Assembly: GCA_002269645.1 (NCBI GenBank) | Contig: NIVC01000135.1 | Span: 248,001 to 312,000, forward strand | Direction of reading: 5' to 3' | Origin: Macrostomum lignano | Taxonomy: Eukaryota | Length of the DNA stretch: 64,000 nucleotides | Shown: positions 8,401 to 57,382 of the stretch, one piece after another | Layout: every line of letters starts with the position of its first letter | Numbering within the stretch: position 1 is the stretch's first letter | Translations under genes and position numbers: made by a program | The notes under the pieces: generated by a model | What the model was told of the DNA's origin: nothing | What the model saw: only the letters and a program-made list of their open reading frames with translations | Database searches by the model: none

Positions 8401-9330
8401 GGTCAATTAGTGGGTCAATGGTATAGATCAATTAGTGGGTCAACTGTTTGGGTCCATTAGTGGGTAATTAATAGGTCAACAATTGGGTCAATTAGTGGGT
8501 CAATTAATAGGTCAACTGTTTGGGTCAATTAGTGGGTCAATGGTTTGGGTCAATTAGTGGGTCAAATTTTTGGGTCAATTATTCGGTCAATCGTATGGCT
8601 CGATTAGTGGGCCAACGGTATGGGTCAGTGAAATAAGTGGGTCAACCGTATGAATCAGTTGGATGAGTCAAAAACCGGGTTAAGATAAGTAAAGTCTAAG
8701 TACGCCGATCAAGATGCAAAACCGCACCTGACTAGCCAAGTAGCGACCCACAGGGTCCCAGGTGACGCCCTTAACCAGTCCGCCATCGCCTTTGAGTGTA
8801 GCCAACCGCTTGTGCTGACCAGCTGGCCAGGCCTGCCACACGGTCACCGTGTTGTCAACCGAGGCCGAGGCCAGCTTGTCCCCCAGCGGTGACCACTGCA
8901 AATCCAACACGTCGCCGTCGTGTCCGCGCAGGGTGGCTGCGCAGCGCCAGTGCTCCAGGCCGCCGCCGAACAGCGGGTTGCTGGCGGCCTCGAAGTCTCC
9001 GCTGCCACCGCCGCCGCCCATGTGGCACCAGAGCATGACCAGGCCATCAACAGCGCCTGAGGCCAGCCATCGCTTATTGTTACTGCTATTAGTAGTGATT
9101 GGCGCAAATCTGACGGCATTGACGCAGCTGGCGTGGCTGGTGAGGCGGCACAGCTGCCGCGGGCGCCGGCTAGAGGGGTCCAGAGCGGGCTCCAGGTGCC
9201 ACAGCACAACCAGGCCGCAGCCGTCGCCTTGGCCGCCTGTGGCGATCCTCTCGCAGCCGGCGTCGATATCAACAGAGAAGATTGGAGCGCCGCCGTCTAA
9301 TTGGATCCATTGAGGCTTCACCACCTTCAT
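3538..9330 (-). CDS. HIRA: HIRA histone H3.3 chaperone; exons 9330-8728, 8189-7824, 7708-7404, ~6517-5614, 5307-4876, 4092-~3538
   Basis: N-terminus [24 protein letters not shown]40 repeats ([31 protein letters not shown]|[20 protein letters not shown]), ASF1-binding B-domain KDGKRRITP and C-terminal [17 protein letters not shown]. Canonical GT-AG junctions. The exon 4 acceptor and the exact 3' end are less certain. Confidence 0.93.
4118..4870. repeat. (GACA/GACACA)n microsatellite filling HIRA intron 5
   Basis: Directly visible; source of the SVCL-rich pseudo-ORFs. Confidence 0.97.
5340..5490. repeat. (CTA)n microsatellite in HIRA intron 4
   Basis: Directly visible. Confidence 0.97.
6566..7362. 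repeat. 24-bp tandem array (GTGAATCACTCACTAGATYATGGG), about 33 copies, filling HIRA intron 3
   Basis: Periodic unit; it translates as VNHSLDHG in the spurious ORFs. Confidence 0.96.
8320..8660. repeat. Degenerate ~12-bp array (GGGTCAATTAGT) in HIRA intron 1
   Basis: GGGTCAA recurs throughout. Confidence 0.85.
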
Positions 9331-9587
9331 GGCATAGCGGCTGGAGTAATGGTCAAATGGAATAATTAAGTCAGGGCCAATGTACACCCGGTGAGAGCCT
9401 GTGTATAAGTGCGCGCCTGTGTACAGTATTGGCGGGCTTGCCTATGCTCAGCAGTCAGCAACCTGTTTATACATAAAAGTACTTCCACAGGGTTTACAGC
9501 GGCCCGGACTTTCTCGCTCAGCGTCAGGGTTAGGGGGGAGAGGAGGGTTATCGCAAACCCTAATTTCTATATTTCTAGAACCCTGTT

Positions 9588-36686: not shown

Positions 36687-37038
36687 GCCGAGTGATTGTA
36701 GTTAGAAGTAGAAAAGGAAGGACACGTGAAACTCTCCACGCGCGGTGTTATATTTATTTATATTGATTCACTGACTCATTCACAGACAGAGATTAGGGGT
36801 GGGTGACTGAACAACACAGAGAGAGAGAGAGAGTGAGTAAATAACCAACTCCAAACCCCCCCCCCCGACACTGGGGTGGCAAAAGTGCACTAGAACTAAA
36901 AAATAAACAAATAATAATAACTAACTGAGAGACCTAGCCAAGCCATACACATAACTAACTATCTGACATCTCCCCCCTAAAGTTCGAAACATCCCCTAGC
37001 AAAGTTCGTTCGAAGTCAGAGTCAGTTCAAATTCAGGA

Positions 37039-38175
37039 TCAAAGTTGCAGGCGTTCAGGTGGCTGCCTCCGACGCTGCGGATAGCGCCTCGCCGGACTGC
37101 TCGGCCGGTCAGCGGCGGCGGTGGCCGCGTCATCCTGCGGCGCGTCATTGCCGCCGTCGACTTCGCTTTGCTCGGTAGGCGGCGAATGCGGTTCATCGGA
37201 GACAGCGGCCGGCGTCACCGGGTCGGCCTCTGGCAGCGAGCTCGTCAGCAGCTGGTCCGTGTGCCGCCGATGGAGAGCGCCGCCGACCTCAACGTCACAG
37301 TTGCGGGATCCAGCGGACACGACGCTGCCCTCCGCCCAGCGGGTGCCGCCGCCAGCCTTTTCGTTGGGGCTGAAGTCACGCAGTAGAACTCGGTCGCCAA
37401 CTTGAAACTCGCGCGCATGCGGATGCTGCTCGACCTGCCGCTCTTGGCGCTGCTCCATGCTGTTCGTCAGCGATGGCATCAGCAGGTCCAGCCGACTGCG
37501 CAGTTTGCGGCCGATGAGCAGCTGGCTGAGAGCTTCGCCGGTGATCGAGTGCGGCGTGTTGCGATAGGACAGCAGCATCCGCTGCAGTGCCGCCGTCGAG
37601 TGCCCGCTCTTGAGCAGATGTCGCTTGAGCACCTGAACGAATCTCTCCGCTTGGCCGTTCGTTGCCGGATGGAACGGCGCCGAGAAAACATGCCGAATGC
37701 CGTTGCGCCTTGTGAACTCGCCGAACTCCGCGGAGGTGAACTGCGTGCCGTTGTCGGAGACCAACACCCGGGGAATGCCCAGTCTGGCGAAGACCTCGCG
37801 GAGTCGCTCGATGGTGGCAGCAGACGTAACGCTGTCCGGTCACCGCGTTGACTTGACCGAGGATCGTCGACCAGTCCAGTCTCAGCTCTGTGAGCCAGTC
37901 GCGACCGAGTACTGCGACGTCGCCTTGCTCGACCACAAGCAGCGTCAACCACCGGTCTTGGCCGTTGTGCTGAACCGCGACCTCTGCCTGTCCGATGGGT
38001 CGAAAGCTCTCGCCCGTGTAGGTGCGCAGCACCGTGGATGTCGGCGACAGACGGAGACCCGGCAAAACATCCTCTTGGAGACTCTTCGGGATGACGGTGA
38101 GGGCGGAGCCGGTATCCACCTCGAAGCGACATGGCTTGCCTTGGAGCAGCAGCTCGACCGCCAGACCCTTGCTCG
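37039..38175 (-). pseudogene. pol: Truncated pol: aspartic protease joined to integrase C-half
   Basis: FEVDTGSALTVI..VLGRDWL, then a junction near 37835-37845 into SVTSAATIERLREVFARLGIPRVLVSDNG. Confidence 0.88.
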
Positions 38176-38490
38176 ATCCGCTCTGCCTAATGCTGAAGAG
38201 GGGCTCCTGCGCCGGGGCTGTTGCCCCCAGGACCCCGGGTCCTGCACGTAATGGCGTGGTGAACTATCTGTGCAGTATGAGACTGGTATGGCCTTTATCC
38301 CAGCCAGCGATGCTCACACCTGCCTCCCCTGGCGGGCTGATAGCTCTAGAGACTCTGTCTCCTGATTTTCACCTTGCAAGGCGCACTTCGAAGGGTACTC
38401 GTCCCGTGGGTGTTAAGGCAGGCCCCCTTGGGCCCTGCCGAGCTGATTCGTTGGCGCCGGGTCCTGGTGTGACCATAAACGCACCCTCTA

Positions 38491-40206
38491 ATGTCCCAGT
38501 GTAACTCCGTGCTGATGGACGCTTGGCCAGGGAGTAGTCTGGTTGCTAACGGTTCCCCTTGCGCTTTTGGGTCCCCCGCAGGGTGGTATTTTGCTTTTTG
38601 GGGGCCTGCCGCTTGGTTTGGGGTTGCGGCCTTGCGGCTCTTTGCCTGTGTTCTGCAGGAAGTCCCACCTTTTTACTTCCAGCCAATGGCTTCTAACCGA
38701 AGTAACAAACCGGCTGTGGATGACACAGTGCCTCCGGCCTCGGCTGGGGCCGTGGACTCCTCGGCCATACCACCTGCTACCATCGGGGACGCCTCGGCGA
38801 GACCCGTGGAGCCAACTCTGAGCGGTGCCTCCGAGAAGACACCTGCTACTCCAGCTGCTAAGAAACGCAGCACCACCTCTGGAGCTGCCCGCCGTCGACT
38901 TAACAAGGCGAGGCGGGCCAAGGAGGGCGGAAGCCAAACCGGTGCCAGGGGCCAACGGCCCGCGGCAGCGGAAGCTTCCCAGTCTAGGGCGGTGGCGGAA
39001 GAGGGCCTCGAGCCCACGGAAGCCCCTGCCCAGGATAGGGAGGCCGATGCAGCCGGGAGGGTGGACAGCCCACCTGAAGAAAGCTCCACTGACCCCCGGG
39101 CCTCCTACGCTGATGCGGCAAAGAGGCAACCGGCGGTTGTCATCCTGGGAAAGGACGCGCGCCTGTCTCCCGATCAGCTGAAGCAGGTGAGAAGTGCCGT
39201 TGATGGCCTCCTGTGGAAGCAAACTCTGAAGGGCACGCCTCTGAACATTCATTCGAATGCGACGAGGGACTCGTGCCTTCTCATTTGGCCCAGTGATGCT
39301 GACTCGGGTCGGCGGCTCCTTGAGCTGCTGCCCGAGCAGAGCTGGGACCTCAACCTAGCCTTCTGCAGAGAGGACGAGCGCCCCCGGACCAAGAGGCATC
39401 GAATCTGGGTCCCGGCCAGGAGCGTTGTTACCTCTGCTGACGAGCTCCGGAAAGGACTGCTAGCAGTCAACCGGGAGCTTCCCGCCGCGGGCCTAGTGGT
39501 GCATGACACCCTTAAGCGCACCGACGGCACTGGCTTCACAGCCATCCTGGGGCTGTCGGACGCCTGGATGAGGCGTTATCCACACGGCAGCTTCATCAAC
39601 GTCGGCCTTTGGAAGCTGCGCATCCGCTCCTACGAGGCCGACCCTCCCCGTGGCAGTGAGCAGGGCGGGCGGGATGCGGAGGCGGCCGGGGCCGAGGCGC
39701 AAGCCTCTGCTCAGACTGCCAAAGCAAACCGCCCTGCCCGGCAGCACGGCCGCGCGGGCAAAGCTGAGCGCGCTGCTGAGGGCGGAGGCGACCGACGCCC
39801 GGCGCGCAGCACCAAGCGGCGCGGCCTGTACCAGCGTGCAGCTGAGGCAGTCCGTACCGCCAAAATCTCCCAGCTGAGGCGAGAGGTCGCCGGGACGCCT
39901 AGGCGCACCAGTTCGTCCAGGGAGGGTGGGGACGTCCCAGCTGGGCCCAACCCCTCGGGGCAGGGCCGACTGGAGACGGACCCGCCTGCCCAGGCGGCTG
40001 GCTGCTCCAGGGCATTGGGCCAATCTGAGGCGGAGGACCCCATGGATGGTGGGCAAAGGGCGGCGAACGCTGCCTACTGCCTTCCGGCCAATCGGGGGCC
40101 TTTTGCTGAAGAAGAGCCCATGGACACCGGCGACCCCGACCCGAAGCCGGTGAGCGCCGAGGAGGAGGAGGAACTCCTGGCGGCTGCAACATCCGATCTG
40201 CAATGA
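38491..40206 (+). CDS. LINE ORF1 (571 aa)
   Basis: Long ORF directly upstream of ORF2; it has low-complexity ends and a central globular region. Confidence 0.8.
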   Translation: MSQCNSVLMDAWPGSSLVANGSPCAFGSPAGWYFAFWGPAAWFGVAALRLFACVLQEVPPFYFQPMASNRSNKPAVDDTVPPASAGAVDSSAIPPATIGDASARPVEPTLSGASEKTPATPAAKKRSTTSGAARRRLNKARRAKEGGSQTGARGQRPAAAEASQSRAVAEEGLEPTEAPAQDREADAAGRVDSPPEESSTDPRASYADAAKRQPAVVILGKDARLSPDQLKQVRSAVDGLLWKQTLKGTPLNIHSNATRDSCLLIWPSDADSGRRLLELLPEQSWDLNLAFCREDERPRTKRHRIWVPARSVVTSADELRKGLLAVNRELPAAGLVVHDTLKRTDGTGFTAILGLSDAWMRRYPHGSFINVGLWKLRIRSYEADPPRGSEQGGRDAEAAGAEAQASAQTAKANRPARQHGRAGKAERAAEGGGDRRPARSTKRRGLYQRAAEAVRTAKISQLRREVAGTPRRTSSSREGGDVPAGPNPSGQGRLETDPPAQAAGCSRALGQSEAEDPMDGGQRAANAAYCLPANRGPFAEEEPMDTGDPDPKPVSAEEEEELLAAATSDLQ

Positions 40207-43200
40207 TGCCAGCGACTACCTGGTGTCTGCAGATCAACACCCAGCACTGCGTGGCGGCGTCGGTCAACCTGATGCGCACGGCAGAGCAACAGCTTCCGGG
40301 CCTGGTCTTCGTACAGGAGCCCTGGATGACTAAAGGTAAGCCAAATAATGTGCCATCTGGCTACCACTGTTTTTGCATGGCGGGCTCTCAGCCTCGCCCA
40401 AGATCTCTGGTCTTTGCTGCAAAAGCTTTTGAGGCATGGATGAGACCTGATCTCTCGACTGGGGACATCTGTGTTGTTCAAATCAATAACCTCATTCCCA
40501 ATAAACCTGTGCTGGTAGCTTCTGCCTATTTCCCGGGCGATGCCCCAGTTGTCTGCGACGCGTTAGTCAACCTTACTGACTATGCTGCGTCCCATCGGTT
40601 CGAGCTGCTCATTGCAGGGGATGTGAACGCACACCACCTGCATTGGGGCAGCAAGAACATCAATAGCAGAGGCGAGGAGCTGCTGGCCTATGTCAGCAGC
40701 ACTAACCTCAACTTCTGTAACGTGGGCAATGCACCAACGTTCAATAATGGGCGGTGGGCCGAAGTCATCGACACCACCATCGCCTCACCCGGACTGCTTT
40801 CCGCAGTTACGGGCTGGCGAGTGTGGGACGAGGACTCGCTCTCGGATCACCGCTTTATCCGCTTTTGCATTGGGCCGACCAAGCAAAAGCCTAAGGTCAC
40901 TTGGAGTCGGAACGTCAGAAACACCGATTGGGCCGCCTTTGGCTCGAAGCTGAGCCGCGGCCTTCGGGATCTTGACCCCCCCCCAGTGACCTCTCTGACT
41001 GCCAGGTGGTGGACGATCTCGCCTCCTCCCTGGGCGGGGCGATTACCACTGCCTTTGAAGCAGCCTGCCCCCTAAAGGCCTATAAAGGCAAGAAATCTGC
41101 TCCCTGGTGGAACCCAGAGCTCGGGGCCCTTCGGCGCCGAGCCAGGACCCTCCAAAGGCGAGCGCTCAAAACCAAAGACCCATCTGACAGAGAGGCCTAT
41201 ACCCGTGCGATCCACGAGTTTAAGGGCCAAGTAAGAAGGGCCAAGACGGCCAAGTGGCGCCAATATTGCGAAGGGCTTGAGGGCTCTCGCCCCGTAGCCC
41301 GCGTGGTTAAGGCACTCACTAATGACCGTTTTTCTAAACTCTCTGTTGTGAAGAGACCTGACGGCTCGGTCACAGAGAGTTCGGAAGAGACTCTAGAGCT
41401 CATGCTCAACAGTTTTTTCCCTAAATCTCCGACTCAGCAGGGCCCGCCCGACCACACAGTGGGAGGGCAAGGCCTAGCTAAGTCTATGATCACCAAAGAC
41501 CGCATTATTAGAGCGGCAAGGTCCTTTAACCCGTTCAAGGCGCCTGGGCCCGACGGCATCTACCCAGCGTTCTTGCACGAGGCGGTGAAAAACCACCGCT
41601 TTCTGGACCTGCTCTGTCGTCTCCTCCGAGCTTGTGTGGAGCTGGGCTATGTACCAGTTGCGTGGAGAGAGGCCCGGGTGGTCTTTATCCCCAAGCCTGG
41701 AAAGAGCGACTACCAATCGGTGAAGGCCTTCAGGCCTATCAGCCTCACTTCTTTCTGCCTCAAGCTCCTCGAGAGACTGGTGCTTTGGCGCCTACTTTCG
41801 GTCGAGCTGAAGCGCTTCCCACTCTCGCAGAACCAGCACGCCTTCCGCGCGGGCAGGTCAACCGAGAGTGCTCTCCATGTCATTGTTGACTTCCTGGAGA
41901 GGGCCGTTCTTGGCAGCGGCTTTGCCCTCTCGCTTTTCCTGGACATTGAGGGGGCCTTCGACAACGTCATCTTCGAGGCCTTTTGCAGAGCCCTGGAATC
42001 CAGGGCCACGCACCCTCACCTTGTCCGGTGGATCATGTTCATGATCCGAAACCGCACTGTTGTGGCCCACCTGAGCGGCAGCTCTCTTTCGGTGCCTGTC
42101 CTGAAAGGGGGCCCCCAGGGCGGCGTTCTCACCCCCGTTCTCTGGAACATGGTCATGGATGAGTTGCTTTGCAGTGATCTCCACGACCCCATTCTCAAGG
42201 TGGGCTATGCCGATGATGTGACCGCGATATGCGCGGGCCCCTCGGTTGATACCATCAGAGACCTTCTGCAGGGCTTTCTGGGACGAGCGGAGCGTTGGGC
42301 AGACCAATGTGGCCTTAGACTCTCAGAGTCGAAAACCACAGCAGTCATGTTTACCAACAAACTGCTCTGGACCATTAAGCCCCTCACCCTCTATGGAAAG
42401 AATATTTCCATGGAGAAGCAGGTCCGCTGCCTGGGCCTCACTCTGGACCACAGGCTTAACTGGACTCCGCACATTCAAACTAAAGCCAAAAAAGCCCTGG
42501 CTGTACTGGCTCAGATCAGGCGCGCCGTGGGCACCACCTGGGGGCTCACCCCCAGGAAGCTGTGGTGGATTTACACTGCCATCATCCGCCCCTCGATCAG
42601 TTACGCCAGCCTCGTGTGGGCTAGCGGCCTGAGCGTCAAGAGCAACCTCGACGCTCTCTACAAAATCCAGGGCAGAGCCTGCCGCATGACTATGGGCGCT
42701 CCACCCTCTACTCCTTTTGAAGGCATGAATGCCTTCCTCTGTGCCCCTCCTTTGGATATTTATATCAAAGGAGAGGCGGCGAAGAGCACCCGGCGTCTTC
42801 TGGATGCTGGGGTGGCCTTCAAGAAAGTGCGGGCCTTTAAGAAGCGGTCGCTTATCCCGCACTCTGACCTCTGCCTCAAGGCTCTCGAGGAGTGTGGCGG
42901 GCTCAACATCCTCACGGACTCGATCCCAGCCACCCTTCTCCTGAGCCAAAGGTATAAGGTCACCATTCAGCCTCGACACGAGGCGAGTGACAGCTGGAGC
43001 GACTCTGAAGTCCACTGTTACACTGACGGCTCTATGAGGCATGGTCTTTCAGGCTTCGGAGCTTGCGTCTTCTTCAAGGGAGAAGTGGTGTGGAGCTACT
43101 CCCAGCACACTGGGCTCAACTCCAGTGTTTTTCAGAGCGAGGTGCTTGCCATCAGCTCCTGCGCGGCAGAGCTGCGCCGAAGGCAGCTTAGCGGCCGGAA

Positions 43201-43840
43201 ATTTATTTTTCACTCTGACAGCCAAGCAGCCCTTCGGGCCCTCTGCCGCAGCACCGCCAGCTCCAGGTCCGTCCTGGACTGCAACACCCAGCTCAACGGG
43301 CTTGCGCTAGGCAACCAGGTGGAGCTCAGATGGATCCCGGGCCACGCCGGCTTCCTCGGCAACGAGCGCGCTGACCTGCTGGCCAAGGCTGGCTCCGCCG
43401 GCGCGCTATTGGGGCCGGGCCCGGGTGCCCCCATCCCCGCCTCGGTGATCAATTCCCGCGTTAAGCGCTGGGCTGACTCCGAGCATCTCCGCAGGTGGCA
43501 CGACACCCGGAATTGTAGGCAATCCCGTGCTGCCGTCCCCTGTCCCTCTCCTCTCCTGCGTAGAGCCCTCCTCAGGCTCAACCGCAGAGACCTCAGAGCA
43601 GTTAGCATGGCCCTCTCCAGGCATGGCTGCTTCTCTCGCCACCGCTTCCTTCAGGGCCAAGTACCCGAGGAGCGGTGCCCCTTCTGCCGCTCAGGCAGTG
43701 AAAACGCCGAGCATTTTATCTGCCACTGCCCGGTTTTCACCAGGGCCAGGCTTACTCACCTCGGGCCAAACCCGGTTCTCTCCGACGTTTGCAGGCCCGA
43801 CAGCATCCCGCTGTTCGCCCGGTACCTCAGGGACACCTGA
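40203..43840 (+). CDS. LINE ORF2: AP endonuclease, reverse transcriptase, RNase H, CCHC finger; 1-nt frameshift at the C9 run 40976-40984
   Basis: LQINTQH, VQEP, AGDVNAHH, SDH; FRPISL, LDIEGAFD, GPQGGVL, YADD; YTDGS, HSDSQAA, GNERAD; CPFC..HFICHC. Confidence 0.93.
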
Positions 43841-43984
43841 CGAGCTGATTTCTTCCCCACCGTCGGTGAGGAGGACCGCGCTGCAGGCGAGACCGACGGG
43901 TCCCCCTGAGCGACACCACTTCAACGGAAGTCGTTGGTCGCCAGGGGCTAGCGGAATGGGCGGTCTCCTCCGCCTCCCCGCTGC

Positions 43985-44865
43985 ATCCGCCGGACGCCCC
44001 CTGCAGCTAAGTCAAGTAAGTCAAGGGGCTCCTGCAGCTCAGCCGGCTCTGGGTCCAGCTTGTGCAGCTTTGAAGACCTGCACACCTTGTGGATGTGCCC
44101 GACTTTGCCGCAGTTGTGGCACTTGGCCTCACGAAGCTTGCACTGCTGCCGACTGTGGGCGCCGCCGCAGCTTGCACACGCGCCTGAGGCAGCAGCTGCC
44201 CGCATAGCGTCGGCTTGAGCTCCGGGTGACTGACGGGGAGCCTGCTTGTTGAGCTCTTCGGGCGCAGTGGGCTTCTTGTGGAGGCGCAGGTGGGCGACTG
44301 CTTCAGCACGGTGCGCCATCTCCGACGACGATTTCTCCGCTGCCTCCAATGCGTCGACTCTGGCCACGAGCGTCTTGAAGTCGGGCTGTTCGATCTCCAG
44401 CAGCTTTGCACGGTGCACGTCACTGCGGAGACCGAAGACAAACTGGTCGCGCAGTCTCTCGTCCAGAGTGCTGATGCAGTGGGATCCGTCTGACCCGTCC
44501 AGAGTGAACTCAAATTTGCAATGCTCCGAGGCAGCCTTTAGGCCAGCAATAAAGTCCGCGAGACTCTCGCCGGGCTTCTGCACGCGCTGTTGAAAGCGGA
44601 ATCTGGCGGATAACATTGACGTCTTGGGAGAGTAATGTGCCCTCAAGACAGCAGCTAAGTCTGAGTATGACTTGGAGGTCACCGTTTCCGGCAGGCACAG
44701 ATTCCGAAGAACCTTGTAAGCGTCTTCTCCGATGGCGGTCACCAGCGTGGCGACCTTCGCCTCGTCTCGGACTTCTTTACAGATGAAATATTGTTCGAGC
44801 CTCTCTAGGTATACCTCAATGTAAGAGTTTGCAGAGAGTTCTGGAATTCTACCAGTTGTAGCCAT
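43985..44865 (-). CDS. gag: Gag of the Mag-like element
   Basis: YLERLEQYF, RFRFQQRVQKPGES, LRDQFVFG, CASCGGAH, CHNCGKVGHIHKVC. Confidence 0.9.
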
Positions 44866-46106
44866 TTTCTCGTCGCCAATGTGAAGTTATGAGCCGAGTG
44901 ATTGTAGTTAGAAGTATAAAAGGAAGGACACGTGAAACTCTCCACGCGCGGTGTTATATTTATTTATATTGATTCACTGACTCATTCACAGACAGAGATT
45001 AGGGGTGGGTGACTGAACAACACAGAGAGAGAGAGAGAGTGAGTAAATAACCAACTCCAAACCCCCCCCCGACACTGGGGTGGCAAAAGTGCACTAGAAC
45101 TAAAAAATCTTAATACTAAAGTTGGTGCAATGTTTGTCTGTCTGTATGTTGCAATTTTTCTCCTAGACTACTTGCAACTCAGCGTTGAAACTTATATGGG
45201 TAAACTACAAATTTTCTGGGTTGGGTTTATAGCTATTTTAATCTTTCATTTTCACATTTTAAGATCCCTAAAAAAGCAGAAATAATATAACAATAGGGAA
45301 TATGATACACCTTGCGCAACTCTTAGTGATTGCGCCACAACAGCTGGCCTATCTGTGTAGTGTATTCTTTTAGCTGAAGGGGTGTAACCGGGCCAGTTGG
45401 CATCAATTTTTAGTGATTACACCATAACTTTCTCCTATCTCTGCAGTGTATTTTCTCTCCAGTGGGTGGCGCTCGCATTCTAAGTGGCTGCGTGTGTACA
45501 ATCGGACCCTGGCTCAGTCGCGGACTATATATACAATTGCACAATGATATGGCTACTGATAAGTTTTCCTGTCTCTCAATGGGCAGCCCTGTGTATTTGT
45601 TGGACATTGAAATTCAATGCATCAATTTGCAAGCAGGCAGTGAACGTACACTTGATACTTCAATTCTATAAATCAGACAGTTTCAAACGCTAACTGCTCT
45701 TCGAGTTCTAAACTTTAAGAGAAGAGACTTATACTGCTGAATAGATCTTGCAACACTGAGTTGGAGGATATAAATTGTTTGCTTTAAATAGAAAGACTAA
45801 AAGCACAGCATCAAAAAAACTATTTCCAGACTTTTAGCTTTCTGCAAAGATTGTACTCATTTTGGGGTTCTATGGGCGTTCGACCGACCCCCCAACAGTT
45901 GGGGGTTCAATTTCTAACTGCTACTGCGTATTGAAAAGGGGTCGGTCGCTGTGTACTGGAGGGTTGATTTAGATTGCGCAATATTTTTGTTAACTTTAAC
46001 TGAGACTGATACTGACTGACTGAGAAATCGGTTGCGCAATCAATTGATTCAATTGGTTAAAAAATCAAATCAATTTTTTATTTGAACACGCAGCTGTGTT
46101 TAGGTC

Positions 46107-47757: not shown

Positions 47758-48059
47758 AGACTGGCTGAGAAATTATGTCATAACTGCTTCGCGTGATTTA
47801 CTCTGTGCGTGGAGTTTTGAAAGTTTTGAATTATATAAGTGCGACGATTTATGTTATCAAAACGATGAGAGCTAGCCTAGAGGTAAACAGACTGACCTGC
47901 TAATGCAGCGACGTGGGTTCGAATTTTTAATTTGTAAAAGCTTTTTTATTAAAAAAATTAATTTTAAACTTTTTAGCTAAAGAAAACTAAAAAAACGTCA
48001 GGTAAATCAGATAGAAGAGAAGCTACGAGTATTCATGTAGTCCATATTCAAAAATTTTT

Positions 48060-48890
48060 ATTAAACTGAGATGCCAAGGCTGAGAGGGAATTGCTGAAAT
48101 ATCAAGACGTGAGGGGAATTGCTGAGATGTCAAGACTTACTGGGGGAATTACTGAGATATAAGGGCTTACTGAGATAATTACTGAGATGCCAAGGCTTAA
48201 GAGTGAATTGCTGAGATGTCAAGGCTTGGAGGGAATTTCTGAGGTGTCAAGGCTTGGTGGGAATTGCTGAGATGTTAAGTCTTGGGGGGGAATTCTATGG
48301 ATTGGGGAATCTTTGAACGAGAGATGCTTCTAATGGATATCTCGAGGAGATGAGGGGATTCTTTGGCCAAGAATTCTATTAATGGGCGGATTATTTGGAT
48401 GGGAGATTCTTTGGATTCCTTGAATGGGGGATTCTGTTGATTGGGATTATTTGGACGTGAATTTTTTGAACGGGTTTTTTAGATGAAGGTATTCTTTGGC
48501 CAGTTATTCTTTTGATGGGAGAATCAATGGATAATGTGGATGGAGATTCTGTGGATGGGGATTATTTGGACGTGGATTATTTGCATGGGGATTCTTTGGA
48601 GGGAGATTCTTTAGTTAGGAATGGATGGGGGATTCTTTGGATATGGATGGGTGGAGGATTCTTTCGATGGGAATTCTGTGAATGAGAGATTCTTTAAATA
48701 AAGATTCTTTTGAATGGGATTCTTTGCATGTGAGATGTTATGAATGGGCAATGCATTGGATGGGAAATTCTTCAGATAGGAGAAGTCCTTGAATGGGAAA
48801 TTCTTTGGATCCGGGATTCTATTGATAGGGGTTCTTTGGATGGGGGATTTTTCTATATGGATGGAGGTCGGGGATTTTTTGGATAGGGAT
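48060..48890. repeat. Degenerate satellite (GCTGAGATGTCAAGGCTT / GGATTCTTTGGATGG); continues at 58597-59790 in the same orientation
   Basis: The same motif families occur on both sides of the TIR element, so the array was split by its insertion. Confidence 0.8.
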
Positions 48891-50503
48891 ACTACTAAGG
48901 GCCGGCAGATCCGCCCTTTTTGGAGGTGGGGTGGGTGTCAACCCTCCTCGCCTCTCATTGGCGGGCGCGCGCGCCGCAGGCGCGTGGCGCCAAGCGCCAA
49001 TTAGGCGCCCATGCCGCAGGCGCACCCTCCCGATATGTGCACCCTCCCGAGCCGCAGGCGCACCTACCGACATGTACCGACATGCCCACCCTCCCGATAT
49101 GTACCCCGATATGTATGCCCACCCTCCCGATATGTATGCCGCAGGCGCACCCTCCCTCCAGAGCAGCAGGCGCCCATGCCGCAGGCGCCCCATGCTGCAA
49201 GCACCCCGAGTGTACACTCTCCCAAGCCGCAGGCACCCGAGTGTACACTCTCCCATGCCGCAGGAACCCCGAGTGTACACTCTCCCACTCTCCCCAGTAC
49301 ACTCTCCCGATATGTATGCATACACAGATATCTAGTCAGCGATATTAGGCTAGTGAAAACTACTTATAGTAGATGAAATTGCGTATATTTACATAAAAAG
49401 TAGATAAAACATATTGGTAGGTGTGAATAATGACACATAATGCATATTAAAATGTACATATTGGAGCATATGAGCAGCAAAATGCACACAATGTAGGCGC
49501 ATATTTGACAGAAATAGACAAAGCAGGTACTGTAGGCGCTACATAGGTGGAAATACACACAGTATAATGCAGGTGCGTACACACTGTAGGTGCAAATTGA
49601 GTATAATACACTAAAATTATAATACATAGCATATAATGTAGGCGCATTTTAAACAATACATTTTTGCATAATAACCCGCAGGTACAAATTTCAGTGCATA
49701 GGCTAAAATACACACTCTGCAAATTGAGTATAATGCAGGAAAATTGTGACATATACAACATATGTATGCAAATTAAGCATATAATGTAGGTGTAAAGTAA
49801 AATACAAGCCACCGGCCCCTAGTAAACAGACACGCCCCCAGAGCCAGGGCCGGGGGATCCCAAGTACAGTGCGGTCAGAGAGGAGTAACATAGAGAAATT
49901 CCTCCCCAAGCCCTAAATAAGGTTTTTTCAAGGGGATCCCAAGTACAGTGCATGCAGAGACTGCACACAAGCAGAGAACATTGACTATTTTCCTCTTGAA
50001 GTTTCATGCAAGGGACCCCTAGTACAGTGCATGCAGAGAGCTATTTTCCTCCCCAATGGGGGTTATCAAGGACCCCTCACCAAGTACGGTGCGGGCAGAG
50101 TAACCGCATACAAATAGGGGTTTTAGCGGATCCCAAGTACAGTGCGCTCCCGGGTGTCAAATGATGCCCCAATGTACAGTGGAGGTAGAGTAACAGACCG
50201 CATACAAAGAGAATTCCAGTCAAACTTTACAGCAGCTCCCACCCCAAATGAGGGTTTTAGTGGATCCCCAGGGGGTAGCTCTCCAAGTTGAGGGATCCCC
50301 CAGTGTGTTGCGAGGCCCAAGTACAGTGCAGGCAGAGAGTAATAGAGACCGCCCCATGTACTGTGCGCTCCCGGGTGTCAAATGATGAAGGACCCCTAAC
50401 TACAGTGCGGGCGTAAAACCATTTTCATCCCCACGAGTCAAGGGATCCCAAGTGGGCACATAGGGGAATCCCAGGCGTAAAAAGACAGATCCTTATCTTT
50501 CAC

Positions 50504-53500
50504 TCACTCCCGAAAGCCATACGGGCGGCTAGCGGCCCCATACACCCTCTTAGTCATTACGCGCTGGAAAGTCTTGTCCATCTCCAGGGTCCGGATTGTA
50601 CAGCTAGCCTTATCGCGCCTGAACTGGGCCTGGGGCAGGCGTACAGTCCCGCCGTGACGCAGAATTTCCTGCAGCTCGTCCTCGCGCTCGGAAATCTCGG
50701 GGGTGACTCTGATGCCCTTGCACTTGAGTACCGAGTACAGCGACCTGTCGGGCTTCTCCACCACGTACCGGTAGAGCTTGGGGCCTCCCGTGGTGAACTG
50801 TACCATGCGGCAGCCAGCAGGTACCTCGTCAGTCCACTGCCCCAAACTCGAACCGCCCGGAGGCTCGTACTCGCCCGGGGAGCAGCGGTATACGACCCTG
50901 GGAGGAGGAGAAGGATAAAAAGTGTTAAGGGGAGAAAGAGAGACAGAGACAGTGAAAAAATTACTTACGAATCGGTATCGGCGTAAATGACGCGGGTTCC
51001 TAGACCCTCCAGAGCCTCGTAGAGTCGCAGCCGGGCGTGGGAGGTGGTGAAAACGCCAATAGGTACATTAGCGTACTTGAACGCCCGCTCGCCAGCGCCG
51101 CCAAATCGGGGCTTGTACTCGAGCATCATGAAGCTCTCCCCAATTGGCTCGCACGACTTGACCTTGATCGAGGGGTCTGTCAGGCGCTGCAGCCACGCCT
51201 CGTAGCTGTCCACAATCTCTGTGGAGGTCAGGTCGTCGCGCTGGCAGAATTTGCCCCAGAGCCTGCAGGGGAAAAATAAATTTTATGTAAGTAGAAAAAC
51301 ACGGTCCCCACTGCAAGTAGAAAAAACTTACGAGTTTAGAAAAATCTTGGCCACAAAGCGCAGGCCGGGATTTTCATCCACCTTTTCCAGCCGGACGCCT
51401 TCGCGCTCGAAAAAGCTGGCCATGTAGGCAGCCTTGGCGTCCTCAGCCATCCCCGGCGAACCGCTAGACTCTGCTTTGAGCTTCAAAAAAGTGTTTACAT
51501 AATCTGCAAACAGGCCCGTGCGAGTCTCGGTCCAATAGGCCAGGGCATGAACTGACTGCAGCTTGTAACCCAACTGCAGGGCTTTGTGGAGCTCTGGGGT
51601 CGACCACGTGCCGCGGAGCATTCTCTCAGCGTCGGTGTGTGTACACTCGCTGCTGCACTGGGTCTCCATGCAGACGCGGCAGAGGCCGAAAACCAGCTTC
51701 TTGCTAATCTTGGCTGGCAGTAGCGGAATGTGGAGATTGGTTGGCGGCAGAATTGACACCTCGGCGATGCCAAAATACCGGGCCAGCTGCTGCTCATCCA
51801 GTAGATGAGGCTCGGGGTGGTGAACCGGGTGCCCGACAGGGTACTTGTCAAACTTGTTGACAGTCGGGTAGAGCGACACCTAGGGGATAAGAGGATAAGA
51901 TAAACTCAAACCCATGTCAACTGTGTGTGTGTACAAGTGTACAAACTTACCACATCCCGATAGCGCAGCTCTACAGTCTCGGTGGCCTCGGCGTGCGGGA
52001 CAAAAGCCTCGGTACGGCCGCCAAACAGGGCATCCTCCAGGCGAATAGGCTGCTGGACTGGCGCTCCCTCGTCCTGATAGTCGTGCTCCCACAGAACACG
52101 CACATTGTATGCAGTGGAGAGCAGCCGGGTGAAGCGCTCAGTCTCCTCATAAATCGCCCGCATTGGCTGGTTCTTGAGCGGGTGCAGCACGTCGCCGTTG
52201 GGGAAGCACTTGGGACAGCCATGGAAGAAGCAGCCATGAAACTGCAGCACTGTCCTGGTCTCTGGGCCGAAGCCGTCGACCTTACGGCCCATGGCGAAAG
52301 CCTCGCCGCCCGAGTCCGCTGTCCGCAACCGGCCGCCAAACTCGGTTGCATTTAAATGTGCCAGCCAGCACCGCGCCTTGTGCGACTGTACATCCGATCG
52401 GCGGGAAATCACCCCAAGAGTGTTGGGCTCCATAAACTTGGTGGTGAATACCGACATGGCCAAGCCCGCAATGGTGTTGGATTGAACAAATGCGTCCAGT
52501 CCGCAAATGTCCTTAATCAGGCGGGCATATTTCAGGCAGCCTTCCCGCAAAATTAGCGTGTCCTGCAGGCAATAGTCCAGATACTCCTTATTAAAATTAA
52601 ACACTTTGCCCTCCTGCTTGGCCAGCCAGTCGGCGATGGAGTCATGCTGCTTGTTTTTCTTTCCTCCGTACATATCAATTGAGCAGTAGGGACCGACGTA
52701 CCCCCAGTTTTCCGGCTGGTTAAACACGTGCGGGAAATCTCCTTTGGTCAGTTGGGTGCCCAAACCAAGCGCCTTTGGGAATTGCGCCAGACCAATAGGG
52801 ATGAAATTGAGGCTGTCCTTGAAGGTGATCTTGTCGCACTTCATGTACATTAGGCGGCTGTTCTGGAAGATCACCTGCGGCTTCTTCTTGGCCAGTCCGT
52901 TGAGTAGGGCGCCGAGCAGGAGGAATGCGTCATACGCAGAGCCATTGTGCGCAATAGCAATTGCCCCCTGCTTGAACACACTAGTCAGCCAGCAGTAAAA
53001 GGCATCGATAGAGTGTGGCCCGACAGATACAAACTCTCGCATCCCACAGGCGCAGTCATTGTGCGAGACACAGCTCGTGAAATCGAGTGCCAAATCGCGT
53101 CCCGCAATGCAATTGGCTGAGCTGTGTAGTCCCCCGCACGCGCTGCAGCGGGGCCTGGGGAAGAGTTTGGGACACGCCTCGCAGGAGGTGGCAGCCGTAA
53201 CCAAGTGTACCCGGTGCTGCTTGCCAGAGTCCACGTACGTCTCGAAATCATAGTAAACATACGGGGCGCTAGACTCTTTGGCTTTGGGCGGGGTGACAAA
53301 GCACTCGTGGGTGGCAGTTTCGTCGTACTGCTTGCAGACTGGACACTTGGCGTAACCGCACTGATGCTCAGGGGGCTGGCCTACTTTTAGTTCTTCTAGA
53401 TAGCCACACGTGCCGCAAACGTGGACCGAATCACAGCGAGATCTGCCCGCCTTATTCTTGCGCTTGTGATTTTCTAGGCACTGAGCATTATAGCAATTTA

Positions 53501-55472
53501 GCCCGCAATCATGGCATCTTACATATGCGCGGTTTGCCTTACAGTTGGAGCCCGGAGTCTTGCATGTACTGCAGGCATCAGCGCACTTGTGCTTCTCATA
53601 ATTGCAATCATAGGCCATCTCGCACTTGGGGCAGTAGTGATCGGAGCCGAAAAACGCAGGCAGCTTGGTAACCACATTAAAGTGCTGCTCGACCAGGTGC
53701 AGGTGCAGAATCTCGGTGCCAGGCAGGTTGAAGATGCACCTGTTGGCCTCCTCTGCGCGGTACACGCGTACACCAAAATCGTGCCCGGGACGCAGCCGGT
53801 TCAGGGCTCGGATCGCTTCGGGCAGTGCATCCACCCCGAAAGGACCGGCCTGCGAGACGGTTTGAAGAGTCTGTGTAGGGGGTAAAATATTTCTTTTAGT
53901 ATTCCCTGATACTGTGTAAAATTCTTTTAGTATTCCATGATACTGCGTAAAAATTCTTATCAGAAAATATATCTTTTAGTATTCCACGATACTGTGTAAA
54001 AATTATTATCAGAAAATTTTAGTATTCCTTATCGTAAAAATTCTTATCGGAAAAATACTAGAAACTTACCGAGTAGAGACCCGCTTCGATTTGTAGCTCA
54101 GTCGCAAGCTTAGTCTGGGCGGGCGAATTGGCCTTGATTGTACGCCACACCTGCATGGTGATGGACTTGGCCACGAATTGCAGGTAGGCGCAGGCCACGA
54201 CCAGAGCGCGCAGCAGGCATCTCTTGTCCGAGTTGGTGATGCGGACATAGTGCTTTGAAAAAGCGTGCCTCTCTTCTAGATGCTTGTTCTCGAGAGCACA
54301 TCCACCTCGAGGCACCCAGGCCTTTAGCAGACGGACAGAAAAGTTGCCTGACAATACAGTGGCATCCGACTGCACAATCTTGTCAATGTGCTTAAACAAC
54401 AATTCAGCCGTCATGCGGGCTGCACGCACCGGGGGAGTATGGGCCGCTTTGAGCATATTGTCGCTCTCGAATTTCGCGGCCATAAAGTCATCACCAGCCA
54501 AATCTTGCTTGAAAACTTCGAGCATGTCGGCAAACACCTCCCGCAAATCTTCGGTGTTGGTAATACGCACCACATACTCGACACCCTTTGCCCTAAACTT
54601 GGGCAGGTCACGCTGATTATCCAGCCGGGCCGTAAAACCTGCATGGGTGGAATGGGGGAGTGTGAGTCAGCCCGGTTCTGTGTGGGAAATGGGGGGTGGG
54701 ATAACTCACCCGGTCCGGTAACAGATTCCGGCTGTGTTGGCGGGACAAACGCGTCTGAAAAAACACAAGGAGATAAAAAACCAGAAGAATCTGTCATTTT
54801 CCTGGCCCCAGCGTGTTTCCCCGCCCTAGCCCAGCAATTTCTTAACAGAGTTTACTCTGCTGTCCCCGCAGCAACTCTCTGCAATTTCTTATCTGCACCC
54901 CCGCTGCAGCCTGTCGCAGCAGTCTTTGTTTACTCACCCCTGCAACTCTCTGTCGCAGCAATTTGCACCTAGCTGCAGCCTGTCTGGGTAGCGCCCTATC
55001 TGCAGCCCCAGTCTGTCCCAGCAACTCTCTGCCCCCACCTGGCTGAACTTGTCTAGCCTGCCCCAACGATTCTGCAGCAATTTCTTATCTGACGCAGCAC
55101 CCTAGCAACTGTCTGTTTTTGCAGCAATTTCTTATCAGCACACCCCTCCTTGTCTAGACAACACCCCCCTAGCAGCAATTTCTTATCAGCACACACCCGG
55201 CTGAAACTTGTCTAGCCCTCCCCTGCAACTCTCTGTTACAGACCCTGCCGCAGCACCCCACCCTAGCAACTCCAGTCTAGACCCCTGCAGCTGTCGCAGC
55301 AGTCTTTGTTGTTTACTCTGCGGTCCCACAGACCCTGCAGCTGCTGCTGCTGCTCAGCCCCTACCCCCACCCTAGCAACTACAGTCTAGACAGAAATTAA
55401 TTAAAACTTACCATAAAGACGTTGCCTCTTGTCAGCCAGGAAAGCAGTTGCGGTGGCGCTGCGTTTAGCCAT
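50504..55472 (-). CDS. polB: Protein-primed family B DNA polymerase, 7 exons, about 1276 aa; exons 55472-55412, 54754-54710, 54638-54070, 53870-51951, 51879-51332, 51262-50969, 50897-50504
   Basis: Exo I YDFETY, Exo II AHNGSAYD, Exo III YCLQD; Vsr-like insert QFHGCFFHGCPKC; Pol motifs DV|VSLYP, KIFLNS|LWGKF, YADTDS|V, KCKG. All donors are GTAAGT/GTGAGT. Exon lengths sum to 3831 nt, and I saw no internal stop. Exons 1-2 are the least certain. Confidence 0.9.
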
Positions 55473-55717
55473 TTTGCAAACAGAGAGTGTGAGAGAGCGA
55501 GCGGAGAGAAGGATTATCTCTCTACCCTGGCTCTGGGGGTCTGTATATATACTAAAAAATCTGCTCAGCTCGCCTGTTATTGGATAAATCGCCAAAAACC
55601 AACCAAAATCATCAAAAATCACCCCCAAAATCACCACCCACCCCACCTCCATCCGGGGTATATAAGGCGCTGCACGGCTGTCAGAGAGCTCTCTGCTGCT
55701 GCCGCTGCTGCTAAATC
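55473..55717. promoter_or_regulatory. Putative bidirectional promoter between polB and the PC4-like gene
   Basis: 245 bp separate the divergent ATGs; TATATATA near 55545 and TATATAAG near 55659. Confidence 0.5.
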
Positions 55718-56251
55718 ATGTCTTCTATCTCTCTATACGAAAACTTTGTGGCGCGGAAGCCCACATTTGAAACTGAACACAACTTGATTGAAATTCGGCG
55801 TCTCTACACCAACGAGGCTGGAGTGTGGAAGGACGGCTTCCCTGCAATCTACTTGAGCGAGCCAGAGTGGAAGAAGCTCGAAGCTGCGCGCCCTGACCTG
55901 GAGGCTGCTGCCCGCCTTCACGTGAACAAGCGGGTCCTGTTGGGCAATTTCAAGGCAGTTGAAGCTTCGCGAGGGAGGATCCGTTTGCTGCGCAATTGGC
56001 TCAATCGGGACCCAAAGTTTAATTGGCGCTACACGATCGAATTCACGCCTGAACTGTGGCGCAGGCTGTTTGCCGCCCGTTTGGACAAGCTCTTCAAGCC
56101 GGCACCTGAGGCACCCCCTCCAGCCAAGCGAGTCAAGACAGACACGCCTCCGGTAGCCGGGACTGAGGTGGATGTTCTTCAGCTCATGGGTCTCAAACCC
56201 TACCAATCTCCGCCCTGGGAAAATCTGTTTAACGAGGGTTGGGACTGCTAG
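55718..56251 (+). CDS. 177-aa protein with PC4/Sub1-like ssDNA-binding motif(s)
   Basis: IEIRRLY..GVWKDGFPAIYLSEPEWKKL resembles the PC4 consensus DIREYY..G..P.KKGISL..EQW..L; a second similar block reads RLLRNW..YTIEFTPELWRRL. Confidence 0.6.
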   Translation: MSSISLYENFVARKPTFETEHNLIEIRRLYTNEAGVWKDGFPAIYLSEPEWKKLEAARPDLEAAARLHVNKRVLLGNFKAVEASRGRIRLLRNWLNRDPKFNWRYTIEFTPELWRRLFAARLDKLFKPAPEAPPPAKRVKTDTPPVAGTEVDVLQLMGLKPYQSPPWENLFNEGWDC

Positions 56252-56367
56252 TTTCCTATTGGTTCGCACCGCCTCACTCGATCCGTCTATATAATTAGTG
56301 TTTCCCCCCTCTCCAGAGAGTCAAACCCTATCTCAGCTCTAATACTTTACTCTCTGTTGATTCTAGC

Positions 56368-57382
56368 ATGTCCCGCCGAGCTCTATCCAACCTCTGGGAT
56401 AATAATCGCCCGACTGAAGAGTTAACCAGCCTCGACGGGGATATCCCTGAACACATAGTTCCCCTAGGCACTGAAAACAACGGAAGTGATAATTGGGAGG
56501 CTGATCAATATCTAGCTTGGGCTATGTCCTATGATAGCGACACCGAGTCTGAAGTTTTTGACCTCCCGCTGCTGGCTATCGGCGGGGTTGTGAACGGTGC
56601 CCCTGCTGCTACTGCCTCCGATTTGACTACCGCCTCAGCCGCCCTCTTTGACGTCTCTGTTGAGGAGCTGACCACAACCGGCCCTGCCTCTGCTGCGCCC
56701 GTCTCTGCTGCTGCCGCCTCTACTACGCCCGTCTCTGCTGCTGCTTCAACTACCTCCCACCGGGCCTCAATATCATCAGCCGCTACGCTCCTTCTCTTCG
56801 ACGACGAGGACGAGGATATGTCTGAGGAGATCGCCGTGGTTCGTGAGCGCTTTCCTCGCATTGTGGCCTCATTTTTCCGCGGGGACATTGACTGGCTGAG
56901 GTCTCGGCATCCTGGCGGGCTGCCCTCCCAAGCTACCTTTGTCAGAGCCTTTAATCGGGTTCTTGATACTTTGGTTGCGAGGGGTGCCGGCCTACGGGAG
57001 GTGTTGGAGGCTGAGACTCTGCACCAGGACTGGTTGATGGGGCGCAATTCGTATGCCCCCGACTCTGAGGCGTACCTGGCCGGTCCGGGAGCGCGGCCAA
57101 CTGCGTGGGATGAGCCCGTCGCATGGCCCTCCAACTGGGAGGAGCACCTTTCGTTGGTGCGCTATACAGCGTCTCTACGTCTGTGGCGGCTGGAGGACGA
57201 TTTAGATTTGGTAAGATATTACATTATATACACAACTCATCTAATCATATACCTTGCATATATTCTATCTACATTGACTGTTATAATTTCCACATTGCCA
57301 GTCATCCGACTACTGCTTCGAGAGCGTGGAGGAAGAGGCCGCGTACGAGACAGCCCTGAGGGAGCGTATGGAGATTGACTGA
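56368..57382 (+). CDS. Orphan acidic protein of the TIR element, probably spliced (56368-57210, 57302-57382; about 307 aa)
   Basis: Long ORF. The AT-rich 91-bp GTAAGA..CCAG segment behaves as a phase-0 intron, giving the tail SSDYCFESVEEEAAYETALRERMEID*. Confidence 0.65.

Follow-up and report, generated by a model that had tools for sequence, protein, structure and literature searches.

A protein-primed DNA polymerase split by six spliceosomal introns in an integrase-free, capsid-free Polinton derivative of Macrostomum lignano

Main finding

A protein-primed DNA polymerase of family B (pPolB), of the Polinton type, is encoded, in seven exons, within a 64,000-nt stretch of contig NIVC01000135.1 of the flatworm Macrostomum lignano (positions 248,001 to 312,000; hereafter the window, to whose positions all coordinates refer). 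The gene, polB, occupies the minus strand of a 9706-bp element (48891-58596) with terminal inverted repeats (TIRs) of about 670 bp and ends of the form ACTACT..AGTAGT. Its six interruptions are confirmed as real spliceosomal introns, and the identity of the element as a spliced Polinton derivative free of integrase and capsid genes is real and well supported. The element is present in many copies, and the reading that accounts for most of what follows, and that is probably right, is that it copies itself as linear DNA by means of its own polymerase and borrows an integrase for insertion.

Structure of the polB gene

The gene is made up of the following parts.

55412..55472, minus strand: exon 1, with the ATG at 55472
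54755..55411, minus strand: intron 1, 657 nt, phase 1; skipped as well as covered in RNA-type contigs
54710..54754, minus strand: exon 2, 45 nt
54639..54709, minus strand: intron 2, 71 nt, phase 1
54070..54638, minus strand: exon 3, putative terminal-protein/vOTU region whose vOTU position is occupied by a Cys
53871..54069, minus strand: intron 3, 199 nt, phase 0, AT-rich; 119-320 nt among copies
51951..53870, minus strand: exon 4, match to PF03175 (expectation value, E, 1.5e-17)
51880..51950, minus strand: intron 4, 71 nt, phase 0, within motif A
51332..51879, minus strand: exon 5, match to PF03175 (E 2.9e-13)
51263..51331, minus strand: intron 5, 69 nt, phase 2, splitting the Ser codon of motif B
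50969..51262, minus strand: exon 6, from the second half of motif B through YADTD
50898..50968, minus strand: intron 6, 71 nt, phase 2, splitting the Ser codon of motif C
50504..50897, minus strand: exon 7, with the KxY and KCKG motifs and the stop codon

A preliminary description of this DNA, made from the letters alone, had proposed six introns of 657, 71, 199, 71, 69 and 71 nt, and these coordinates and lengths proved correct on re-derivation. The single open frame of 3831 nt that it had reported is indeed restored: each of the seven exons is free of stops when translated singly, the phases (1, 1, 0, 0, 2, 2) fit, and none of the split codons at the exon joins could be a stop. All six introns carry the U2-type signature of a GTRAGT donor, a pyrimidine tract (60-95% pyrimidines in the last 20 nt) and a YAG acceptor, and three of the six also have a branch-like motif. 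The GC content at third codon positions is 0.65-0.77 in the long exons, and four introns have only 27-41% GC. Retention of any single intron leads to a stop or a frameshift.

The exonuclease, polymerase and putative vOTU residues could be located exon by exon. Exon 4 contains the putative vOTU His, a Cys-rich region, ExoI-III, a VSR-like insert, YxGG and the Asp of motif A. The placement of three introns in or right after motifs A, B and C, as first proposed, was refined, the motif A intron being of phase 0 and those of motifs B and C lying inside a Ser codon. A terminal-protein and vOTU N-terminus has been described for Polinton polymerases (bioRxiv 2024.03.18.585575), and exon 3 is, by analogy, a putative domain of this type.

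Removal of the introns

None of the available runs is on record as RNA, and four of the 24 listed were examined as assembled contigs. Three of them (X1, X2 and X8, from three studies) are guessed to be RNA, and the fourth (X18) is of unknown kind, probably DNA. Joints were counted with CT..AC ends on the plus strand, the gene being on the minus strand. Those of introns 2 and 5 are present in X1, X2 and X8, that of intron 4 in X1 and X2, that of intron 1 in X1 and X8 (among the joints listed, none for X2), and that of intron 3 exactly in X2 and with an offset of 2 nt in X1 and X8. Among the joints listed, intron 6 appears only as a bridged gap in one contig of X2, 1679 nt long, which spans the gaps of introns 6, 5 and 4 together. 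The junction check proposed in the preliminary description was therefore positive for all six introns, each being skipped in contigs of the guessed-RNA runs. X18 behaves as DNA, with no polB intron joints and with the introns covered by its contigs. A processed DNA copy is unlikely to be the source of the joints because an exact-pattern search of the genome across intron 5 gave 0 intron-free and 36 intron-bearing sites. The introns are of host type, as had been suggested, with GT..AG ends, removal in RNA-type contigs and a frame that is destroyed by their retention. The conclusion that making the polymerase needs nuclear splicing is supported, and screens based on open reading frames (ORFs) would see just fragments of the gene, as anticipated.

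A regulatory switch, along the lines of the control point raised in the preliminary description, is another role that the introns might have: polymerase would then be produced only in places of complete splicing, such as the germ line or stem cells. Any retained intron kills the frame, and all three RNA-type runs have contigs over the sequence of intron 1, whose joint is unlisted for X2; both points suit such a role. However, contig depth cannot rank isoforms, the same picture is explained by pre-mRNA, DNA carry-over or damaged copies, and the position of the introns within motifs is left unexplained. A switch is, on balance, doubtful.

Selection on the gene and conservation of the introns

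Twenty further copies of the element were fetched, chosen from 40 scored of 95 candidates, the 40 scored candidates being 96-100% identical. Together with the window copy they form family A. The GT..AG ends are kept in 19 of 19 copies for introns 1-3, in 20 of 20 for introns 4-5 and in all 19 copies that reach intron 6. Indel events across copies amount to 0-1.8 per kb in exons and to 10-31 per kb in introns. The pairwise ratio of nonsynonymous to synonymous differences (pN/pS) of polB is 0.152 in 20 sequences (one truncated copy excluded), and polB is shown to be under purifying selection. Recent spread is indicated by this low ratio together with the 96-100% identity of the copies.

Coding sequence in homologs at the place of the predicted introns had been named in advance as an observation that would count against them. 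In 40 of 40 full-length homologs, exactly the expected number of residues, and no extra ones, was found across junctions 4-6, to which this count applies since junctions 1-3 fall in poorly aligned sequence. The idea that polB has been domesticated as a host gene, or that its introns are misread coding sequence, may be regarded as refuted. The host-like introns and the presence in UniRef of gene models of these loci (the proteins closest to the element genes, 90-100% identical, are labelled Macrostomum lignano) could be cited in its favour. Against it stand the splicing joints, the dozens of copies at scattered sites, bearing TIRs and each its own target site duplication (TSD), the alignment of homologs and the stops within the introns.

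A sister family and the age of the introns

A second family of elements, family B, is about 62% identical to family A in exon 4, has ACTACG ends and is broken at the same codons. In nearly all of the eight copies inspected, its introns 3-6 match those of family A in codon and phase (intron 6 was not placed in one copy and is offset by the alignment edge in another). For introns 1-2 the positions come from reading a single copy by eye; all six positions are common to the two families. The intron sequences of A and B resemble each other no more closely than shuffled ones do (46-59 of 300). With positions common to a family only about 62% identical and sequences that can no longer be aligned, the introns are old. 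Both families share the introns and the reduced gene set, which should therefore predate the A/B split.

In a tree of exon 4 (45 rows, no outgroup), the two families together make up a single clade (support 1.0, long stem) among Polinton-type pPolBs, and the nearest outside pPolB proteins are about 26-41% identical. The sister group in this tree, a Caenorhabditis brenneri protein followed by fish, involves long branches and was not used. Two complete relatives (L175 and L176) have single polB frames of 1250 and 1408 aa. The introns would have been gained after the lineage had settled in the host lineage and before the two families separated.

Ends, copies and gene content of the element

The remaining features of the window element are as follows.

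48885..48890, plus strand: left TSD copy, AGGGAT, 6 bp
48891..49562, plus strand: left TIR, beginning ACTACT, 80% alike to the right TIR
55718..56251, plus strand: ORF2, 177 aa, PC4-like fold
56368..57382, plus strand: ORF3, orphan gene of two exons separated by a 91-nt intron (57211-57301)
57931..58596, minus strand: right TIR, ending AGTAGT
58597..58602, plus strand: right TSD copy, AGGGAT, 6 bp

The ACTACT..AGTAGT ends, with 21 different 6-bp TSDs, were found in 21 of 21 family A elements, and the fetched copies are 8.7-10.5 kb long. In family B, a clear 6-bp TSD was found in five of ten copies, the other five being unresolved within the fetched 20 kb. Within a single copy, left and right TIR agree to at least 97% in 12 of the 21 elements, and TIR subtypes vary between copies. 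The window copy, with its 80% alike TIRs, is a hybrid of two subtypes with an intact TSD, and four of the 21 copies are hybrids of this kind, which suggests recombination between copies before insertion. Synonymous divergence is also unequal among the genes (polB 0.084, ORF3 0.037, ORF2 0.021), hinting at mosaicism. Two size classes exist in family A, one with ORF3 (about 9.4-9.7 kb) and one without it (about 8.7-9.1 kb, with a longer TIR). Multi-kb inverted arms occur in the family A copies C1158 and C1090, with TSDs intact, and in a resident Polinton family described below as M3 (C3189, C2301); these elements resemble panhandle-derived defective genomes.

The gene set consists of polB, the PC4-fold ORF2 and the orphan ORF3 only. 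On six A and six B elements, the best E was above 3 for profiles built from 44 integrase, 23 ATPase, 31 capsid and 5 protease sequences, and tblastn gave nothing on any of the 21 A or 10 B elements. The search for a capsid module, which used no minor-capsid profile, thus found neither major capsid nor ATPase nor protease in A or B, and the 9.7-kb element leaves no room for an integrase in cis. The first assignment of the gene to a Polinton held for the polymerase, which is of Polinton type by PF03175, motifs and clade, and the 6-bp TSD agrees with it. It did not hold for the element as a whole, which is incomplete, without integrase, ATPase, protease and capsid, with reversed end motifs in place of a 5'-AG end and with introns in a core gene.

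ORF2 is likely a PC4-like single-stranded-DNA-binding protein, as judged from its structure model. The model has a pLDDT of 88, and the top seven Foldseek rows are PC4/Sub1 (probability 1.0, root-mean-square deviation 1.7-2.6), with a moderate best Foldseek E of 3.5e-3, none at or below 0.001, and a Pfam PC4 match below cut-off (E 0.02). Its nearest relative outside A and B, 31-32% identical, is an ORF of the intronless family M3. A PC4-like gene is present in only two of ten family B copies, most of which have a right arm of about 3.5 kb without recognisable gene. ORF3 is subject to purifying selection, with a pN/pS of 0.15, and is matched in 14 of 21 copies; its intron is skipped in X1, X2 and X8. 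No useful Pfam, Atlas or outside homolog was found for it, and mutually conflicting UniRef names were ignored.

The element is embedded in a degenerate satellite of two alternating short-unit blocks (48050-48890 and 58597-59790). Elsewhere in the window, a long interspersed nuclear element with endonuclease, reverse transcriptase and RNase H (plus strand, 40110-43840) lies between the gag and protease/integrase frames of a minus-strand long terminal repeat element (37000-44900). Host genes are represented by a DUF229 protein and HIRA-like exons (633-1613, 5590-9441).

Resident Polintons as possible helpers

At least five integrase-bearing Polinton families (M1-M5) reside in the same genome, which contains 73 double-jelly-roll capsid matches; capsid matches lie in M1, M2 and M4. 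Uninterrupted pPolB frames of 1125-1478 aa occur in M3-M5, and the fetched M1 and M2 copies are frameshifted. The polymerases of these families are far from those of A and B (best E 0.002). All 17 resident Polintons with readable ends begin AGTAG, the ends not having been reached for M5 and several M3 and M4 loci. A genome search with Pox_A32 gave no matches although the fetched elements hold such ATPases, so that this search is insensitive. In M1 (L079-L080, L099-L100, G000:C2232) a D5-like primase-helicase stands beside pPolB, and the integrase has a weak phospholipase-A2-like N-terminal match. In M4 (L141 6604-7608, G000:C506) an ORF upstream of pPolB gives a weak match to adenovirus protein X (mu), below cut-off (E 1.4e-4).

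The triplets of the ACTAC and AGTAG ends are told apart by their middle base alone, which makes cross-mobilisation by these families plausible, though unproven. In the proposed mechanism, host transcription and the nuclear spliceosome would yield one pPolB mRNA, a step for which intron removal is shown at contig level. The N-terminal terminal-protein domain would prime synthesis at the ACT-ACT end, ORF2 would coat the displaced strand, and polymerase and PC4-like protein together would copy the element as linear DNA. A resident Polinton-type integrase would then insert the product in trans, as the 6-bp TSD leads us to infer. Strand-displacement and panhandle replication is expected to give inverted-arm copies. 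TIR pairs that are alike within but not between copies, and inverted-arm copies with TSDs, fit a protein-primed route, and this TIR homogeneity and these copies are indirect indications that a linear intermediate may be replicated in this way.

Several points weigh against this account. Extrachromosomal DNA, protein and enzyme activity have none of them been seen. That X1, X2 and X8 are RNA is guessed, and a single contig carries the case for the removal of intron 6. Frameshifts or stops, some of them maybe assembly errors, affect 15 of 20 copies, five being lesion-free, and the six introns jointly are not enriched at conserved sites (sum P=0.47). No ACTAC-ended helper was found among the fetched loci, 115 of 2640 integrase candidates having been scored and 10 fetched, and integration in trans would require either an integrase able to accept the altered end or another that escaped the search.

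Two other origins deserve mention. The first is that the copies are deletion derivatives of a complete ACTAC-ended parent, lost or unassembled, and that the family is now largely stranded. This would agree with the absence of ACTAC ends among the resident integrase families found, with the damage in 15 of the 20 copies and with the AC-starting end motif of a complete fish Maverick (PMC8097293). However, both of the two families, about 62% identical, are without the missing module, so that the reduced form is old, and the identity and pN/pS of the copies speak for recent spread; stranding is thus quite unlikely. The second is that a virus or element is divided into two segments, of which this is one, with integrase and capsid genes carried on a partner that has the same ends. 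An end type of its own, ACTAC, and an exact 6-bp TSD despite the lack of an integrase in cis could be understood in this way, and the segments of bidnaviruses do have matching ends (PMC8502044). Yet most of the 93 exact matches to the TIR motif in the genome pair at 7.6-9.7 kb on contigs with polB matches. Moreover, of 14 atypical loci that were fetched, 11 contain polB pieces, one (C1157) is a right arm only and the remaining two (one duplicated locus) are a single TIR beside satellite. No second segment was found with the family A TIR motif, the ends of family B not having been searched genome-wide, and a partner of this kind is improbable.

The resident families also bear on the possibility that the introns are a camouflage from host silencing aimed at intron-poor foreign genes. 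In human cells, HUSH represses long intronless transgenes and introns counteract it (PMC8770142), and in C. elegans the ERI-6/7 small interfering RNAs target intron-poor, possibly viral genes (PMC11414722); ORF3 of the present element is likewise spliced. Nevertheless, intronless Polinton families thrive in the same genome, the position of the introns is not predicted, and the pathways cited were described in human cells and C. elegans. Camouflage can be entertained as a tentative and rather unlikely explanation.

Introns at conserved motifs

The preliminary description had stressed that three of the introns fall at the catalytic motifs. This is true of introns 4, 5 and 6, which lie at the 94th, 99th and 95th conservation percentiles; introns 1-3 lie at the 5th-7th, and the claim does not extend to the six as a set. 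Two of the six are in the top 5% of conservation (P=0.034), and the chance of falling within the motif windows is 1e-4 to 1.5e-3, a post hoc figure.

An independent test of position was made on 82 related outside loci (80 metagenomic, 2 viral). Of 17 candidate breaks in 10 loci, nine breaks in three loci were retained. The three (L255, L275 and L290, all metagenome contigs) have nine frame-restoring predicted GT..AG introns in pPolB, including sites in ExoII, ExoIII, YxGG and motif A, none of them at the flatworm positions. Their mean conservation percentile is 0.85, and six of the nine are in the top 20% (binomial P=0.003); all nine are predicted from DNA, one locus supplies six of them, and breaks beside conserved flanks are the easier ones to detect. 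Rejected candidates comprised a second gap in L275 (no frame-consistent GT..AG pair), an ambiguous break in L239, and single breaks in L259, L263, L268, L291, L292 and L311, judged coding inserts or frameshifts. Introns are not confined to reduced elements, since L255 also has an ATPase match and L290 a protease match. Among truncated homologs, 11 of 55 end no more than three profile positions past the anchor residue of motif A, B or C; as a sign of introns this is a lead only, since P0177 has an uninterrupted cluster mate (P0199) and the DNA is unseen.

Chance, or a general bias of insertion or detection, would deprive the motif positions of special meaning. The blind test of the six introns and the post hoc nature of the motif-window figure are in line with this, as is the greater ease of detecting breaks where flanks align well, but the nine outside introns argue against it, although six are from one locus. 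Such a bias is a serious possibility, if still somewhat unlikely. As an account of the motif positions, a filter at the DNA level is favoured over regulation: an insertion at a catalytic motif would survive only if exactly spliced, and imprecise loss would then be impossible. A further, speculative extension, unlikely as it stands, is that animal Polintons gain spliceosomal introns at the catalytic motifs of pPolB time and again, independently of one another, since homing-type nucleases, perhaps the VSR or EndoVII domains embedded in pPolBs, cut there. Insertions made during repair would be kept only if exactly spliced and would then render the gene immune to cutting. The flatworm lineage would be the end point, a capsid-free, integrase-free spliced nuclear replicon hitch-hiking on the integrases of other Polintons.

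Comparison with known systems

The element resembles Polintons/Mavericks (adintoviruses) in its PF03175 pPolB, which is about 1280 aa long and contains a VSR-like insert (a domain described in PMC10748475), and in its TIRs of several hundred bp, trinucleotide-repeat ends and 6-bp TSD. It differs from them in its length (8.7-10.5 kb against 12.7-24.6 kb), in the absence of integrase, ATPase, protease and capsids, in the six spliceosomal introns of polB, and in its ends, (ACT)2//(AGT)2, which are the reverse of the common (AGT)2//(ACT)2 and are ACTACG in family B. Intact vertebrate Mavericks are described as having no introns, lengths of 12.7-24.6 kb and (AGT)2//(ACT)2, (AG)3 or (AC)3A ends (PMC8097293), and in nematode Polintons core genes are intronless and cargo genes intron-bearing (bioRxiv 2022.07.12.499685). 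By definition, Polintons encode pPolB and integrase (PMC5499653), and pPolB-plus-TIR loci without integrase in C. elegans have been treated as remnants (PMC11414722); the classes of pPolB are treated in PMC10748475 and PMC8502044. Surveys demand pPolB and integrase in long ORFs, or at least five core proteins (PMC11414722, PMC10748475), and interruptions have been treated as decay (PMC8097293). The present class is therefore invisible to such surveys twice over, being spliced and without integrase. A literature search, with subscription journals, Repbase and supplements outside it, found neither spliceosomal introns in an animal Polinton pPolB nor this family. For Macrostomum and Polinton, only work on Tc1/mariner surfaced in this search, and a term search of PMC12801592 found no mention of Polinton or Maverick.

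The element is significant as a clean example of a viral gene acquiring introns in an animal, an event on whose age the two families set limits, and its host is likely a laboratory-tractable flatworm. It also exemplifies a virus-to-transposon transition in which the replicase, not the integrase, is retained, and the recurring placement of introns at motifs in other hosts makes how and where spliceosomal introns arise directly testable.

Polinton-like elements of dinoflagellates carry introners, which are young introns formed by transposon copies (bioRxiv 2025.03.18.643946). They share with the flatworm element the presence of spliceosomal introns inside a Polinton-like element, but the flatworm introns are old and fixed in position across two families. 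Nor are these introns similar copies of one sequence, the comparison being among the element's own introns with no host-wide intron search: in 10 pairwise tests of the five short introns, nine were not above shuffles at the 1% level, and the best pair gave 3/300. Inteins and group I introns, both parasitic inserts, occupy motifs A, B and C in polymerases of family B. Three of the flatworm introns likewise lie at these most conserved motifs, but they are plain GT-AG introns in which no nuclease or self-splicing structure was seen, and the exact sites differ between hosts. Group I introns also occur in polinton-like viruses (PMC12220804). Other such viruses, from entomopoxvirus infections, have been found integrated without an integrase, for which supply in trans has been proposed (PMC11296320). 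They are comparable in being integrated without detectable integrase, but they have divergent capsids, whereas the flatworm element has no capsid match and its pPolB is spliced. Finally, the cytoplasmic linear plasmids of yeast (pGKL type) are Polinton derivatives that lost the capsid module and kept TP-vOTU-Exo-Pol (bioRxiv 2024.03.18.585575). In the flatworm element the capsid module is likewise gone and the polymerase retained; unlike the plasmids, it is nuclear, spliced and integrated with a TSD, and is known here as integrated copies only.

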